Source: an uncultured virus (IMG/VR IMGVR_UViG_3300010938_000022)
Lineage: Duplodnaviria > Heunggongvirae > Uroviricota > Caudoviricetes
Strand: one strand, 5' to 3'
Length of the DNA stretch: 20,000 nucleotides
IMG/VR virus record: IMGVR_UViG_3300010938_000022
The notes beneath the pieces are model-generated. The model was not told the origin of the DNA. It worked only from the letters and a program-made list of their open reading frames with translations, and made no database searches. A program made the translations under genes and the position numbers. Positions 4,874 through 17,954 of the stretch are shown here, piece after piece (the stretch's first letter is position 1; each line of letters opens with the position of its first letter).

Positions 4874-5880
4874 TGCTATTGCTTGGCCAAATTTTTGTTG
4901 ATCCACCCACAATTACCTCACCACCAGCCGGAGCTTTAACCCCTGGTACTGAAGATCAAGCATATTCAGTAATTATTACTGCAACCGGAACTGGAACACT
5001 AACATTCAGTATTAATGCTGGTACCTTACCAGCAGGAATCACTCTTGATTCTAATACTGGCATTATATCTGGCACTACTTCAGACCCAGCTAATTATTAT
5101 TTTACTGTTAGGGTAACAGATACTTATAACCAGCATCATGATAGAGATTATTCATTAACAATAAATGCAGTATCTCGCCCTGCTAGTACAACGATGTTAT
5201 TGATCGCTGATTCTGATGATACGCTTGACTTGACTGGCTCAGCTATTAATGCATTTCATGAACAAATTCAAGGGCTTGTAGATTTCACCAACGAATTTGG
5301 CGGTACAAAGTGGTCGCGCCAGACAGCCGTGCTTGACGGTAAGAATGTGGCTCGCACAGGCGGCGATTTCATTGAGTACTCAAGCCCAAACACCGCCGAT
5401 GGAAAACTGGACGCATGGATTGCTTCATCTGGCGATGTTGCGCCAGAAGGCTGTCTTGTGTTGGTGTTCTACCCGACAGCTGTTGATAATGGCAAAGCAT
5501 GGCTCAGCAGCCGTGTCAACTTGAACATTGAGGGCGGGATGATCAACGACGGCGAGGATAAGTTCCGTTTCAGAATCCGTAACACGGGCGGTGGTATGGA
5601 AGGGCCATCGGTTGCCTGTGCGCTGAACACGTGGCATTACGCCATCATGCGCTGGAACACAACACACGTTTATCTGTCAATTGACGGCGGCGCGGAAAGC
5701 AGCGTAGCACTGAGCGCGACCGGTGGCTGTAGCAACATGAATAATCGCATAGAAATCCTTGGTGATTCAGGTTCAGGGGAAGGTGCTAAAGGTGACTTCA
5801 TGGAACTCAGCATCATTGATCCTGCTGACATTGCTAATATGATTTCATTCTTGGAATCAGAATATCCAACATTAGCATAA
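4873..5880 (+). CDS. Ig-like (putative Ig / He_PIG) plus LamG/ConA-like domain protein, probable virion adhesin
   Basis: GTLPAGITLDSNTGIISGT...YYFTVRVTD Ig motif; LNTWHYAIMRWN...YLSIDG...KGDFMELSI LamG motif. Confidence 0.8.
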   Translation: MLLLGQIFVDPPTITSPPAGALTPGTEDQAYSVIITATGTGTLTFSINAGTLPAGITLDSNTGIISGTTSDPANYYFTVRVTDTYNQHHDRDYSLTINAVSRPASTTMLLIADSDDTLDLTGSAINAFHEQIQGLVDFTNEFGGTKWSRQTAVLDGKNVARTGGDFIEYSSPNTADGKLDAWIASSGDVAPEGCLVLVFYPTAVDNGKAWLSSRVNLNIEGGMINDGEDKFRFRIRNTGGGMEGPSVACALNTWHYAIMRWNTTHVYLSIDGGAESSVALSATGGCSNMNNRIEILGDSGSGEGAKGDFMELSIIDPADIANMISFLESEYPTLA

Positions 5881-6228: not shown

Positions 6229-6392
6229 TTAATAACGGGCGCTTATCTCCGTTGCCGTTAGGGAAAGCGGAACAGAGGATAGGCCGCCTTGATGTTAAGG
6301 TAAGGGTGAAAACAGCCAAGGGGTGACCCTAGCAACACTCTTGCTTTGCGAAGCTCGGACTTTCCTCGTGTTAACTTCTAACCCGTACTATT
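6229..6392 (-). ncRNA. rnpB: RNase P RNA gene, rearranged and partial
   Basis: GAGGAAAGTCC at 6367-6357(-). AGGGAAAGCGGAACAGAGGATAGGCCGCC...GGTAAGGGTGAAA and the GGG-GTGA-CCC P9 hairpin lie on the + strand at 6260-6332. AGATAAG plus a P2-like 3' strand follows. The 3' P4 strand was not found. Confidence 0.8.
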
Positions 6393-7603: not shown

Positions 7604-8248
7604 TTAATCTTTTGTTGTAATTACATTACCAATTGTAAGTTTATCACCATTAGGAAGTATAATAGTTAATACACCATTCTCATGAATAACTTCCCACCAT
7701 ACAGAATTTTCTCTGTCATCTTTAGTAATCTTACCTCTAGTTTCATGATTTACACCATACTTTGGATCTGGTGGCTCACCATTTGGGCCAGACTTCCACT
7801 GATAACTAGCATTGAAATACGGTCCTATATTAGTCTTTACGGAACCATCTCTATTTTGTGGAAGTTGTGCAAACATTCCTTCCCAGTCAACCCCCTCAAC
7901 GTTGGCAGGGTATAATCTCATCCTTCTAACTGTTTTTGGAAATGAGAACGAAATGGAATGTTGATCCCAATGATCTGGTAAAAAACTACCATCATCTAGT
8001 TTAAAATATTCAACTAAATATATATTAGTGTCTAACTCTATTTCTTGGGCTATCCCTTCAAATTCAGTCCATTCGGCAAATCTTACTTTTACTTTGTAAT
8101 GATATTTGTAAGTTTCTAACCCTATAACTTGAAACCCAACTTTAGCTTCCTTATTTGGTTGTTCTAAAGGTGGGAAGTCTTTTGCATAATTAACTATTGA
8201 GCAACCACTTAGTAGGCTTAAACACATTAGTAATATGAGTGTTCTCAT
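7604..8248 (-). CDS. putative lipoprotein
   Basis: MRTLILLMCLSLLSG-C signal peptide II and lipobox; start re-assigned to ATG 8248 because the longer ORF overlaps a tRNA. Confidence 0.8.
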   Translation of the reverse strand: MRTLILLMCLSLLSGCSIVNYAKDFPPLEQPNKEAKVGFQVIGLETYKYHYKVKVRFAEWTEFEGIAQEIELDTNIYLVEYFKLDDGSFLPDHWDQHSISFSFPKTVRRMRLYPANVEGVDWEGMFAQLPQNRDGSVKTNIGPYFNASYQWKSGPNGEPPDPKYGVNHETRGKITKDDRENSVWWEVIHENGVLTIILPNGDKLTIGNVITTKD

Positions 8249-8267
8249 ATTATATTTTTGGTTAAAA

Positions 8268-8354
8268 TGGCGGAATGCAAGGGACTCGAACCCCATCCAC
8301 TTGCGACCATCTAGCTTCCAACTAGCGCTGATACGCCTGCCCAGTTTGCATTCC
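8268..8354 (-). tRNA. tRNA-Ser(GGA)
   Basis: GGAATGC/GCATTCC-G-CCA, loop TTGGAAG, long variable arm, TTCGAGT. Confidence 0.85.
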
Positions 8355-10147: not shown

Positions 10148-10298
10148 TTTAATTACTCCCTAAATTTCTATCTCGTAATCGTCACCATGTCCAGCATCCG
10201 CAGCGGGAAGCTGGTGAACTCCACACGAAGGGCAGCAAGTCCGCGCCTTCCTTACTGCCGAGCGATCGTGAGTGATCGCTAACCGGCGTGACAGCCAT

Positions 10299-10979: not shown

Positions 10980-11270
10980 TCAAATAAAATTATTAGTTCC
11001 ATTACTTCTCCCTAATTGATTTGCATCGAAGTCAAGAAATGGTAACGGACTTTCAGCATAGTTACCTAGTTGACCATACTTAAAAGGTTCATCTAAATAC
11101 TTTTCATCTACACCTAAGTATTGGACATTTTTAAGTATAGATAGGTCTTTAGCCTTATTGAGGAAATTTTCTTGTTCTGCTGCTGAATAACTATCCCAAA
11201 ATTCTGGTAATTCTATTTTATCACTAAAATTATAACCATGAACTTCAAATTTTATCATTAGAAACTTCAT
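10980..11270 (-). CDS. hypothetical protein
   Basis: 96 aa, ATGA overlap with the upstream gene. Confidence 0.65.
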   Translation of the reverse strand: MKFLMIKFEVHGYNFSDKIELPEFWDSYSAAEQENFLNKAKDLSILKNVQYLGVDEKYLDEPFKYGQLGNYAESPLPFLDFDANQLGRSNGTNNFI

Positions 11271-11668
11271 ACTTTGCCTTTCGCCATCTTAATGTTACCA
11301 ATTGTGATGTGATAACATTTCTTAGTAGATCCTAAATCACCGAATCTGAATCTTGGTAAGCCTAACTCTTCTCTGATATCGCCAATCCTGTCACTGTGTG
11401 CATTTAAGTAGAAATACGTTCCATCAAAGTTGATTTTCCCATCGTAATAATACTCAATAACTTCATTTTCATACTTATTCCAAAAATTAGTATTCCTTAC
11501 TTTTTCATATTTTGGTCTTACAACAGTTATATGTGGTGCATGCATTTGAGTTTGAGCATAAAAGTATTTTGGTATTAAATTAAAGTATAAATCGGCTATA
11601 CCTTTGTCAACCCAAACTACCGCTCTAAATTGAGAATTATATTGTAAGACCCCTGAACTTTTATACAT
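11267..11668 (-). CDS. 2H phosphoesterase family protein (LigT/Acb1-like fold)
   Basis: Two HxT motifs (PHITVV and YHITIG) about 75 aa apart; probable ATG start at 11668. Confidence 0.8.
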   Translation of the reverse strand: MYKSSGVLQYNSQFRAVVWVDKGIADLYFNLIPKYFYAQTQMHAPHITVVRPKYEKVRNTNFWNKYENEVIEYYYDGKINFDGTYFYLNAHSDRIGDIREELGLPRFRFGDLGSTKKCYHITIGNIKMAKGKV

Positions 11669-12082
11669 AAGACATTTACGTATATATTTACTTTTTAATT
11701 TTATAAACACTCAACATTTCAGACTTTGGCACACCAAATCCACCCCATCAGTCATCGTTATCCATGAGACATGGCTTACCATCAGTAAACCCTACCCATA
11801 CTGCTGTTACGGTGTATTTATTTGCTTTACGTTTCATCATGCTTCTCTATTAATGTTATTAGGAATGAGCCAATTTCCATTCACCCTCATAGAATCTTTT
11901 TGATGTTTCTATAGCTGGTTTAATAAGGACACATATTCTTTTTCAATACGTATGCAACTAGTGTCTACTCCATATTTTTTTAATAAACCTTCTACAGATT
12001 CACCTGGCTTTGGATATATTACTCTTACATATCTTTCAATTGCACCCGATCTTCGGTGTCAGATTATACTATAGGGCTTTAA

Positions 12083-12224
12083 TGGCGGAGAAGCTCATAG
12101 TTAAGTGACTAGGATTTTTAGTAACTCAGTGATAAAAGTTGCCATTCCTACCACTTCGGGTTGCCCCCTATCGCTTCGTGCTCGCGTACTCGCATAAGTC
12201 TTTATTAGCTTAGCTAACTTCCCC
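12083..12224 (-). ncRNA. 142-nt structured RNA with tRNA-like acceptor stem and CCA end, unknown class
   Basis: GGGGAAGTT/AGCTTCTCC-G-CCA terminal helix; internal long hairpin 12103-12156; GGG-GCAA-CCC GNRA hairpin; no canonical T-arm. Confidence 0.55.
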
Positions 12225-12468
12225 ATACTTTCTTTTAACTCTAAAAAAGTGTTATATTCTTGCTACTCTCTAATTTGTTTCCTAGCTCTCTCACGTTCTT
12301 CTGATTCAATCCTTTGCTTTTCTTCTGCTTCTTTAACAATTTTTGAATGTAATTCTTTATAATTCTCGATCCAGAGAAATTCAATAGGCAATTGATAGTA
12401 TTTATCATCATAATGTCCATACTGTGAAAGTTTACTTTGATATATGCGTAACCACGTGGTGCTACCAT
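12225..12468 (-). pseudogene. frameshifted hypothetical coiled-coil ORF
   Basis: Protein-like frame YGHYDDKYYQLPIEFLWIENYKELHSKIVKEAEEKQRIESEERERARKQIRE*QEYNTFLEL is out of frame with the ATG at 12468 and has an internal TAG. Confidence 0.45.
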
Positions 12469-12548
12469 TTTATGGAAATATGACTTTAGGGCTAGCTATC
12501 ATTTGTGTAATATTTGCGATAATCTTTACCATCCTTTTCAAGAAATTG

Positions 12549-12720
12549 TGGTGGTCCTGACAATCCTAACGATAGTCCACGGAGTTAATTTATGTCATTT
12601 AAAAAGATTGTGTGTCAGCCAATTCAAGTAAAAGTCATAATGGGCGTGGCGAGCCAGTTTATCATAGCTGGCTCGAAAGCGATTAAGGCATAAAGAACGT
12701 TTATCTCTTAAGGAGCAGGT
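12549..12720 (-). ncRNA. possible tmRNA 3' remnant or other CCA-ending structured RNA
   Basis: Ends TAACTCCGTGGA...GTCAGGAC-CACCA; strong hairpin 12650-12675; T-arm and 5' end absent. Confidence 0.3.
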
Positions 12721-12721
12721 T

Positions 12722-12777
12722 AAAACAACGGATTTCTGCTCCAAAGGCAGACGCGTTACTATTACGCTATGAGGCCA
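12722..12777 (-). pseudogene. 3'-truncated tRNA-Gln(TTG)
   Basis: TGGCCTC 5' strand, D arm and TCTGC-CTTTGGA-GCAGA intact; T-arm 3' half and acceptor 3' strand missing. Confidence 0.75.
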
Positions 12778-12780
12778 TAA

Positions 12781-12856
12781 TGGTTGGGGAAGTTGGACTC
12801 GAACCAACATGGCGCAGCTTCAAAGGCTGCTGAGTTACCAATTACTCTATTCCCCA
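12781..12856 (-). tRNA. tRNA-Gln(TTG)
   Basis: TGGGGAA/TTCCCCA, GCAGC-CTTTGAA-GCTGC, TTCGAGT, CCA. Confidence 0.93.
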
Positions 12857-12857
12857 A

Positions 12858-12941
12858 TGGTGCGCTAGGAGGGACTTGCACCCTCATGCCTTTCGGCACC
12901 ATATTCTAATTTGGCGTGTCTTCTAATTTTACCACCAGCGC
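12858..12941 (-). tRNA. tRNA-Leu (probably TAG; imperfect anticodon arm)
   Basis: GCGCTGG/CTAGCGC-A-CCA, variable arm TGCC-GAAA-GGCA; anticodon arm CCAAATTAGAATATGG appears 1 nt short. Confidence 0.75.
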
Positions 12942-13193
12942 TTAATACTTTCTGGTATAACCTTTAACCCACTTCCCGTTCCTATAATAACCAGCTATTA
13001 CAGCTTGTTTATTATATACATCAATGAATCTATCAATCTCTGTAATTGCCTGTTGTATAATTTCCTTATCTGGTTGAAAATTAATCTCTAAAAAATCATT
13101 ATTGAATAAAGCTTTATAATCAGATTTCAAAATTTCAAAGAGATTTAAAAATCTTTTAAACCAAACATTATTATCCCAAACACGATCTAACAT
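12942..13193 (-). CDS. hypothetical protein (possibly 5'-disrupted)
   Basis: 83 aa ending IAGYYRNGKWVKGYTRKY. Confidence 0.5.
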   Translation of the reverse strand: MLDRVWDNNVWFKRFLNLFEILKSDYKALFNNDFLEINFQPDKEIIQQAITEIDRFIDVYNKQAVIAGYYRNGKWVKGYTRKY

Positions 13194-13339
13194 TTCATTT
13201 AAATTAACTTTTTGCTTCTTTGCTACTTTTTGTAGACATTCAAGATTGATGATAGTTCATCGTATGCTTTGTGACAATTCATTAAATAATCATACACTAC
13301 AATATTTGATACTTTACTAATAAGCATATTTTATCCAAT

Positions 13340-13402
13340 TGGAGGCGGACCATAGAATCGAACTATGCTGACCTAGGAAGTGCACCAGCATTTATGTCCG
13401 CT
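13340..13402 (-). pseudogene. tRNA lacking anticodon loop (Cys-like acceptor)
   Basis: GCGGAC/GTCCGCC-T-CCA and perfect T-arm CATAG-TTCGATT-CTATG; anticodon arm reduced to CCTAGG. Confidence 0.7.
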
Positions 13403-13617
13403 GAGCTATGTTTGCTGCGATATTTTAATGATGCTTTTTATACAAATAGGTATGGTAAATTAACATATAAACGTTCATCAAGTCTTCATATTAATATAAC
13501 AGTATTCACAATACTAAAGTAAGTAATTCCAACAACTAATAATTCAAAGAAGATTATTTTAAATATGCAGATAATTCATTCCAATTATCAAATAATTCAT
13601 TTATTTTGAATCGAGCC

Positions 13618-14581: not shown

Positions 14582-14597
14582 TTAAACTATATTTGAG

Positions 14598-14758
14598 TGG
14601 TGTATGCTGTTTCGTCAGACGGCACAGCAGCGAAGCCTCTTTAGAACCCCAAACCGAGGGGGCAGATGGAAGACTTGCGGTGCGCACCGCCATTATTCCT
14701 AAACCCGCAACTAGTATTCGAGTTCTCTCGGTCTTCCCCCCGACGAGATTAAGGACCA
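14598..14758 (-). ncRNA. GC-rich structured RNA candidate, CCA-ending
   Basis: Nested helices 14612-14618/14740-14746, 14668-14674/14731-14737, 14675-14680/14705-14710; lies immediately 3' of tRNA-Gly. Confidence 0.5.
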
Positions 14759-14763
14759 TTAAA

Positions 14764-17719: not shown

Positions 17720-17795
17720 TGGTGGAGACGAAGGGATTTGAACCCTTATCCTTCACGATGCCATCGTGCTGCTCCGCCAGTTGAGCTACGTCCCC
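17720..17795 (-). tRNA. tRNA-Ala(GGC)
   Basis: GGGGACG/CGTCTCC-A-CCA with G3-U70, loop ATGGCAT. Confidence 0.93.
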
Positions 17796-17866: not shown

Positions 17867-17954
17867 TGGCGGAGTGCAGTGGTCTCGATCCACACCCATT
17901 TTCATGGGCCACCTGTTTAGCAAACAAGGCTGGAACCATTCCAGTTTACACTCC
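17867..17954 (-). tRNA. tRNA-Ser(GCT), second copy
   Basis: GGAGTGT/GCACTCC-G-CCA, loop TTGCTAA, long variable arm, T-loop ATCGAGA. Confidence 0.88.

Follow-up and report, generated by a model that had tools for sequence, protein, structure and literature searches.

A candidate 142-nt RNA with an acceptor-like helix and encoded CCA in a phage tRNA gene cluster

Since the 1970s, phage tRNA gene clusters have been recognised as a source of stable RNAs whose ends resemble those of tRNAs, among them species 1 and 2 of T4 and RNAI, RNAIII and RNA1 of T5. T5 RNAI (rnaI, AY543070.1 30394-30500) is 107 nt long and annotated as a "stable RNA with unknown functions". It is preceded by U at position -1, its terminal helix GGCUC/GAGCC is followed by G and CCA, and its body is not a cloverleaf. 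RNAI is present in 306 T5-like records, with conservation over its whole length in 305 of the 306 and invariant ends in the four that were aligned. T4 rnaC (139 nt) and rnaD (119 nt), located at AF158101.6 70908-71171, are the species 1 and 2 RNAs, and T5 RNA1 (144 nt) is annotated as a "tRNA-like stable RNA". Neither Rfam nor ARAGORN detects T5 RNAI, RNAIII and RNA1 or T4 rnaC and rnaD; therefore, silence of these programs on a candidate does not argue against its belonging to this class. Literature searches found no paper for bacteriophage T4 species 1 RNA together with tRNA, and nothing pertinent on tRNA-like RNAs in huge-phage tRNA clusters.

A second group of relevant molecules keeps more of the tRNA. 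Mukai et al. 2017 (PMC5389517) describe non-canonical 8/4 tRNA-Ser genes of phages, as well as allo-tRNAs that carry G3:U70 or G73 and are charged with Ala or Ser. Here, we compare these systems with a 142-nt element found in a 20,000-nt window (the whole stretch of DNA analysed) from an uncultured virus, whose source contig is 78,366 nt long.

Anatomy and genomic setting of the candidate

The first-pass annotation had described a 9-bp terminal helix followed by G-CCA, a G3-U70 pair combined with a G discriminator, two small hairpins and a long interrupted stem. That description of the sequence is accurate to the base. The helix and its G-CCA end are present at 12083-12224 on the minus strand, the wobble pair (G3-U136) and the discriminator (G139) are both there, and the GCG-AGTA-CGC and GGG-GCAA-CCC hairpins and the long stem all appear in predicted folds. 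The features of the locus are the following.

12083..12224, minus strand: candidate 142-nt RNA (RNA position i = window position 12225-i); sole match of covariance model R1; GC 0.46
12216..12224, minus strand: 5' strand of the terminal acceptor-like helix, GGGGAAGUU (RNA 1-9); G3 belongs to the G3:U70-type wobble
12087..12095, minus strand: 3' strand of the terminal helix, AGCUUCUCC (RNA 130-138)
12083..12086, minus strand: discriminator G and encoded CCA (RNA 139-142)
12184..12193, minus strand: hairpin GCG-AGUA-CGC (RNA 32-41), seen in the minimum-energy fold
12158..12167, minus strand: hairpin GGG-GCAA-CCC with a GNRA-type tetraloop (RNA 58-67), seen in both folds
12103..12156, minus strand: long interrupted 54-nt arm (RNA 69-122), seen in both folds
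12041..12056, minus strand: small hairpin CACCG-AAGAU-CGGGUG, 27 nt downstream of the candidate CCA and without a U tract
12101..12226, minus strand: overlapping 41-codon ORF, judged not to be a gene (see below)

The 7-bp core of the terminal helix, GGGGAAG/CUUCUCC, is made of G1-C138, G2-C137, G3-U136, G4-C135, A5-U134, A6-U133 and G7-C132. U8-G131 and U9-A130 lengthen it to 9 bp, after which come G139 and C140-C141-A142. The element is flanked by U at -1 and starts with G at +1, and its 3' end reads GCCA-U. In the predicted folds, the arm at RNA 69-122 consists of 11 bp including a G bulge, then 3 bp and 5 bp, with an 8-nt loop as its cap. The hairpin loops are UAA, AGUA, GCAA and UUAUCACU, none of the four being a T loop, and a 7-nt single strand precedes the 3' acceptor strand.

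The window has a GC content of 35%, in which the candidate forms an island of 46%; other such islands are mostly tRNAs. All tRNA genes of the window and nearly all of its ORFs lie on the minus strand. The tRNA-like genes comprise 10 called by ARAGORN, three found by Rfam only and two of the 8/4 type, all of them on the minus strand and all encoding CCA. Of the five neighbouring tRNA-like genes read, four have U at -1, as does the candidate, and the GCCA-U end is common to the candidate and the serine-type tRNAs of the window. The element is located in an ORF-poor gap (11841-12240), of which 11841-12100 holds no minus-strand ORF of at least 20 codons. A terminator scan of 11000-13500 gave no sites, and no promoter stood out there. 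The best phage matches of the 147-aa neighbour gene are to an uncultured 595-kb phage (LR756511, 54.5% identity), and the SpoU methylase encoded in the window best matches a 484-kb phage (LR756508, 46%). Given these protein matches, the window is a low-GC tRNA cluster of a huge-phage relative. None of the sequencing runs listed as containing the stretch is an RNA run, and contigs of one public DNA run (share 0.06) leave 11808-12743 uncovered. One 151-nt contig from the same run carries a 20-nt insertion behind window position 11666, which falls within the first codons of the listed 147-aa ORF and near the start of a shorter 133-aa call.

The 41-codon ORF (12226-12101) raises the question of whether a small protein is made here, with the RNA fold incidental. 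The ORF starts with ATG, spans RNA positions -2 to 124 and is in frame with an upstream 42-codon ORF across one TAG. However, a search of 1.84 billion representatives returned only its own entry and a spurious TPR-repeat protein, the purine run upstream stops 1 nt before the ATG, and there is no spaced Shine-Dalgarno sequence upstream. We consider translation of this ORF very unlikely. Stop codons of 27 ORFs (TAA 17, TGA 7, TAG 3) contain no hint of recoding, and translation table 4 gave nothing reading across the candidate. Since TAA, TGA and TAG are all used as stops, there is no sign of recoding in the window. Stop-codon recoding was accordingly rejected: the 42- and 41-codon ORFs merge only if TAG is read as Q, and all three stops close confident ORFs.

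Additional elements of the cluster were noted. Two serine-type tRNA genes of 87-88 nt, 8268-8354 (minus) and 17867-17954 (minus), were missed by both ARAGORN and Rfam and emerged from a scan for a 7-bp acceptor followed by N-CCA. Both combine an 8-bp acceptor with a 4-bp T stem and a long extra arm, end in GCCA and match the phage (8/4) tRNA-Ser as characterized in PMC5389517. The fold of 17867-17954 is a clean cloverleaf of the 8/4 type (z = -3.4) that carries anticodon GCU. The anticodon of 8268-8354 reads GGA, and this gene is overlapped by the annotated start of ORF 7604-8296, which is probably placed too far upstream. An 84-nt, CCA-ended tRNA-like gene lies at 12858-12941 (minus); its "anticodon" is given by ARAGORN as two bases, and its Rfam score of 28.6 bits is just sub-threshold. 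Two non-coding stretches, 14582-14763 (minus) and 10148-10298 (minus), are GC-rich (0.57-0.67), one just downstream of a tRNA-Gly and the other beside a DUF7699 gene. They have no Rfam match, and their fold z-scores (-0.6 and -1.2) are unremarkable.

Known RNA families and chance expectation

With default settings, ARAGORN called 10 tRNA genes in the whole window and none at the candidate. Rfam at gathering threshold (4227 families) gave 12 matches in the window, all of them tRNA and again none at the candidate. When 11900-12400 was searched at E <= 10, three noise matches were obtained (MALAT1, E 9; veev_FSE, E 3.1; RgsA, E 9.4), and the tRNA model RF00005 did not match the candidate at that level. 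ARAGORN with relaxed thresholds (-ps70/-ps80), with introns (-i) and in tmRNA mode found nothing on the candidate's strand; a single call at -ps60 was on the opposite strand. In tmRNA mode (-m) at -ps70, ARAGORN returned 0 genes, and the only sub-threshold RF00023 match of the window falls on tRNA-Ala 17720-17795. The candidate has the 7-bp acceptor stem, discriminator base and encoded CCA of a canonical tRNA, and lacks the D arm, the anticodon arm with its 7-nt loop and the T arm with its T loop. By inspection of the sequence, no 7/5, 8/4 or 9/3 T stem could be drawn beside the 3' acceptor strand.

Both programs agree with the first-pass annotation that the interior is without D, anticodon and T arms, and its statement that the element matches none of tmRNA, SRP RNA and tRNA-Sec holds. 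The comparison with all of Rfam that it had recommended found no family. Consequently, identification as a tRNA (with or without an intron), as an allo-tRNA or as tmRNA was rejected on the uniformly negative results of ARAGORN, Rfam and T-stem inspection. Identities as SRP RNA, 6S RNA, a Y-RNA-like or skipping-rope RNA, or another Rfam family, were rejected for want of a covariance-model match. A Ser-tRNA into which an insertion has come is likewise unsupported, as ARAGORN with introns was empty and D-arm likeness was non-significant.

The predicted fold of the candidate has an energy of -39.6 kcal/mol versus -32.6 +/- 3.6 for shuffled sequences (z = -1.94), with 8 of 200 shuffles equal or better. 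Pairing probability in the terminal helix is 0.46 for pairs 1-7, then 0.43 and 0.29. The value of 0.46 reflects competition from an internal GAAGC: a fold in which GAAGC pairs with the 3' strand (-39.6) is level with the acceptor-closed one (-39.4). Chance occurrence was gauged by scanning for a 9-bp helix (at most two G-U and at least four G-C pairs) plus NCCA with a span of 100-250 nt. The pattern occurs 0.24 times per simulated 20-kb strand, and real phage sequence (656,812 bases scanned) holds 37 instances. One of these, a look-alike in related locus L004, GGGGCGGCA/UGCCGCUCC with G3:U70, A and CCA, resides inside a proline-rich protein-coding repeat. A filter for 7 bp, at least four G-C pairs and NCCA gave 15 matches on the minus strand of the window, namely 13 tRNA-like genes, one overlap artefact and the candidate, and one match on the plus strand. 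Overall, the signal of the candidate above chance is only marginal.

These figures bear directly on the reading that the element is a GC-richer intergenic spacer or untranslated leader in which a 9-bp complement happens to lie beside CCA, with no discrete RNA produced. We regard this as unlikely, yet as an explanation of real weight. At least one such helix is found in 21% of 200 simulated strands, the L004 look-alike shows that even G3:U70 can accompany one within coding sequence, the z-score is modest, an alternative fold is equally stable, and no homologue was found. Chance accounts less well for a position on the tRNA strand in a non-coding gap, together with G(+1), U(-1) and a GCCA-U end as in the serine-type tRNAs. 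The GC content is likewise tRNA-like and not that of an AT-rich spacer, and the element contains several stable hairpins, one with a GNRA loop. As an orphan, the candidate is not yet distinguishable from a chance fold, and we give roughly even odds to the existence of a discrete RNA bounded by these ends.

Homologue searches and neighbouring loci

No RNA match was found in phage GenBank (50,697 records) by megablast of 2.5 kb or blastn of 171 nt, and exact searches of IMG/VR with a 28-mer, and with a 22-mer of the neighbouring tRNA-Gln, gave no homologue of the RNA. Single-protein locus searches with both neighbour genes likewise yielded no RNA homologue. By blastn and nhmmer, the candidate RNA has no match in 48 related-phage loci: 46 in which the 147-aa protein has a homologue (25 from metagenomes, 21 from IMG/VR) and two from LR756511 and LR756508. 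Model R1 matched only itself in 323,905 bases (the window and the 48 loci, 49 sources), and the candidate occurs in 0 of 13 whole related phage records, a set outside which L004 and L048 fall. A degenerate junction-plus-GNRA pattern retrieved one stretch from IMG/VR and 90 from genomes; across 81 loci that were searched, likeness was confined to the pattern. Thus, the BLASTN search of phage metagenomes put forward in the first-pass annotation came back empty for the loci covered and left no input for R-scape. Many matches to the junction-plus-GNRA pattern come from a repeat in one Acidobacteriota MAG (L066, L077, L095, L097-L099, L102 and L118). This repeat contains GCACGAAGCGATAGCGAGTGATCGG with a partial inverse about 60-80 nt away, is present in at least 11 copies in one genome, some of them in tandem, and is unrelated to the candidate.

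The 147-aa neighbour gene (11267-11710, minus) encodes two conserved H-x-T motifs that recall 2H phosphoesterases or RNA ligases, with H46-I47-T48 and H120 invariant in 35 sequences. It has 96 homologues and no Pfam match, and matches phrog_12204, where function is not assigned. Homologues sit inside huge-phage tRNA arrays in seven of nine loci examined, which suggests that the protein could have a role in tRNA repair or processing. The RNA gene nearest upstream of the homologue is tRNA-Phe in L004, ending 48 nt before it, and tRNA-Cys in L013, ending 9 nt before it. In another related fragment with 35% GC (L034, IMG/VR record G003), CCA is encoded in 14 of 15 tRNAs, and a tRNA at 5679-5753 has anticodon CUA, of the amber-suppressor type, and is labelled Pyl by ARAGORN.

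That an ordinary tRNA occupies this upstream position in L004 and L013, with arrays at most loci, favours the possibility that the candidate is a decayed tRNA gene, perhaps of the alanine type, in which acceptor stem and CCA are left, the body has been replaced or scrambled, and function is lost. Decay of tRNA genes does happen in the window, because a truncated pseudo-tRNA-Gln (12714-12770, minus; Rfam 29.2 bits, model 7-64) lies 500 nt upstream of the candidate. It comes directly after an intact tRNA-Gln(UUG) and has the anticodon loop CUUUGGA, no acceptor stem and a decayed T arm. Furthermore, one pair and the discriminator set the acceptor GGGGAAG/CUUCUCC apart from that of tRNA-Ala in the window (GGGGACG/CGUCUCC). 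However, the 5' 28 nt of the candidate show no significant similarity to 150 tRNAs of the window and related loci: the best score of 9 (null 7.17 +/- 1.40) was matched or bettered by 11.7% of 300 shuffles, a share that rose to 82.6% when the D-arm part was taken by itself. There is also no T-arm remnant, ARAGORN with introns and low thresholds was empty, and a perfect 9-bp helix with an intact CCA is unlikely to outlive the tRNA body without selection. We regard decay as improbable, though together with chance it is still a contender.

Related phages were also surveyed for RNase P genes. Two of 13 related phage records, both of huge phages, encode miniature RNase P RNAs of class A that lack the specificity domain; the other 11 have none. 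The gene at LR756508.1 76010-76235 (L052:1501-1726, plus) is 226 nt long (49 bits, E 8e-15) and ends 2 nt before tRNA-Ser(CGA), whereas that of G008 (L147:1501-1698, minus) is 198 nt long (63.9 bits, E 2e-20). Both span the whole model minus the specificity domain, and RNAs of this form should not need the tRNA elbow. An HMM built from the two genes found no miniature RNase P gene in the window, and a literature search on phage-encoded or minimal RNase P gave no paper bearing on the matter by title or abstract. On the plus strand of the window, 6232-6356 gives a sub-threshold but specific match to the class-A RNase P specificity domain (model 74-213; 21.8 bits, E 1e-4 in a 900-nt search) and contains GGUAAGGGUGAAAA. 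Adjoining it on the minus strand, at 6351-6362, is an exact GAGGAAAGUCCG, a conserved motif of the catalytic core. This puzzling region may represent either a scrambled piece of rnpB or an antisense RNA directed at the RNase P core, and phage GenBank records contain no match to it.

A tentative reading and comparison with known phage RNAs

We tentatively favour, with confidence somewhat short of even, the reading that the candidate is a small stable RNA of phage tRNA clusters, freed by tRNA end-processing. Consistent with this are its place on the tRNA strand in an ORF-poor gap, U(-1), the GC island, and its status as the sole non-tRNA match of the 7-bp filter besides an artefact. Against it stand the absence of a homologue from the searches, the chance rate of 0.24, the z-score of -1.94, the helix probability of 0.46, and the fact that neither a promoter nor a terminator stands out. 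Transcription would run through the candidate together with the tRNAs and small ORFs around it on the minus strand. RNase P would then cut between U(-1) and G(+1), steered by the 9-bp helix and the 3' GCCA, and 3' trimming would halt at CCA, freeing a 142-nt RNA and parting the upstream and downstream messages. The body of this RNA is predicted to be a three-way junction, with the GCAA-capped hairpin and the 54-nt arm, stacked under the terminal helix, which may itself stack on C52-G129 and A54-G57/C125-U128 above the junction. Sequence anatomy and genomic context are observed; transcription, both cleavages, stability and any function are inferred.

Bacterial RNase P cleaves substrates that consist of a helix plus RCCA and have no tRNA body; minihelices and the precursor of 4.5S RNA are examples. 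The candidate displays the substrate traits of an acceptor-type helix, G(+1), U(-1) and a 3' RCCA, and lacks the T-loop contact; having no T arm, it would therefore miss the usual contact between tRNA elbow and RNase P. The first-pass annotation had proposed an RNA that borrows tRNA-type ends for another role. Its non-tRNA part stands, while the end-processing part fits the genomic setting and the T5 RNAI precedent, and the decoy or scaffold role suggested as an example is purely inferential.

A long shot, in our estimation, is that the RNA mimics the acceptor end alone and serves enzymes that recognise just the top of a tRNA, being cut by an elbow-blind RNase P and then either charged (G3:U70/G73) or used as a decoy for a host enzyme. 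The target of such a decoy would be a tRNA-targeting defence or repair enzyme of the host, and the RNA would represent a new functional class of phage RNA and no relic.

Charging itself could instead be the point of the molecule, with AlaRS, or SerRS through G73 and the long arm, producing a charged decoy or donor distantly like the tRNA-like domain in tmRNA. AlaRS charges minihelices with G3:U70, and G3:U70, G73 and an encoded CCA are all present in the candidate. In E. coli, 8/4 and 9/3 tRNAs inserted Ala and Ser according to their identity elements, as Mukai et al. (PMC5389517) report. Nevertheless, the candidate has no T arm and no tag reading frame, yields no tmRNA call even at relaxed threshold, and has G as its discriminator whereas alanine tRNAs have A. 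We rate a chargeable mimic as most improbable.

Returning to the favoured reading of a stable RNA freed from the tRNA transcript, the closest relatives can be set against the candidate by structure. The 8/4 and 9/3 allo-tRNAs and phage (8/4) tRNA-Ser, as presented in PMC5389517, resemble it in the 8-9 bp acceptor, G73 and long extra arm. The allo-tRNAs, however, retain a D arm, an anticodon arm and a short T arm in a 12-bp acceptor/T branch, whereas the candidate has none of these arms and a 7-nt linker instead. With the tRNA-like domain of tmRNA (RF00023) it shares the GGGG start, the G3:U70 helix, CCA and a non-tRNA interior, but it has no T arm, pseudoknots or tag frame, its discriminator is G and not A, and it is only 142 nt long.

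Within phages, T4 rnaC and rnaD and T5 RNA1 are comparable to the candidate in size (120-145 nt), in location within a tRNA cluster and in orientation along with the tRNAs. They depart from it in structure: T4 rnaC has a canonical T arm, CCGGGUUCGAAUCCCGG, beside its closing helix and no encoded CCA, whereas the candidate is without a T arm, and T5 RNA1, unlike the candidate, folds with tRNA-like arms. The closest known analogue by architecture is T5 RNAI. Both elements are encoded on the tRNA strand of a phage tRNA cluster, with U(-1) and G(+1); in both, a terminal helix followed by G-CCA closes a body other than a cloverleaf; and both are missed by ARAGORN and Rfam. They differ in helix length (5 bp in RNAI versus 7-9 bp) and in G3:U70, which occurs only in the candidate. 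Moreover, RNAI is a known stable RNA according to its record and is found in 306 records, whereas the candidate is an orphan known from sequence alone. Model R1, run with filters off on T5 and T4 loci (L001, L050 and L051), reached at best 8.8 bits (E = 1) and so found no similarity there; the likeness to the T5 RNAI type is one of architecture and not of descent.

At present, the candidate is a single orphan sequence with marginal statistics, and the interpretation of it is reasonable, without independent support. If real, it would point to end processing or acceptor-end recognition as the selected feature, and would offer a convenient minimal substrate with which to probe recognition by the elbow-blind miniature phage RNase P RNAs. 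It would also add an unrelated example, from an uncultured huge-phage lineage, in which the acceptor helix and CCA alone are kept, and would thereby join T5 RNAI and its counterparts, a recognised but unexplained kind of phage RNA, as a new member unrelated to the others.
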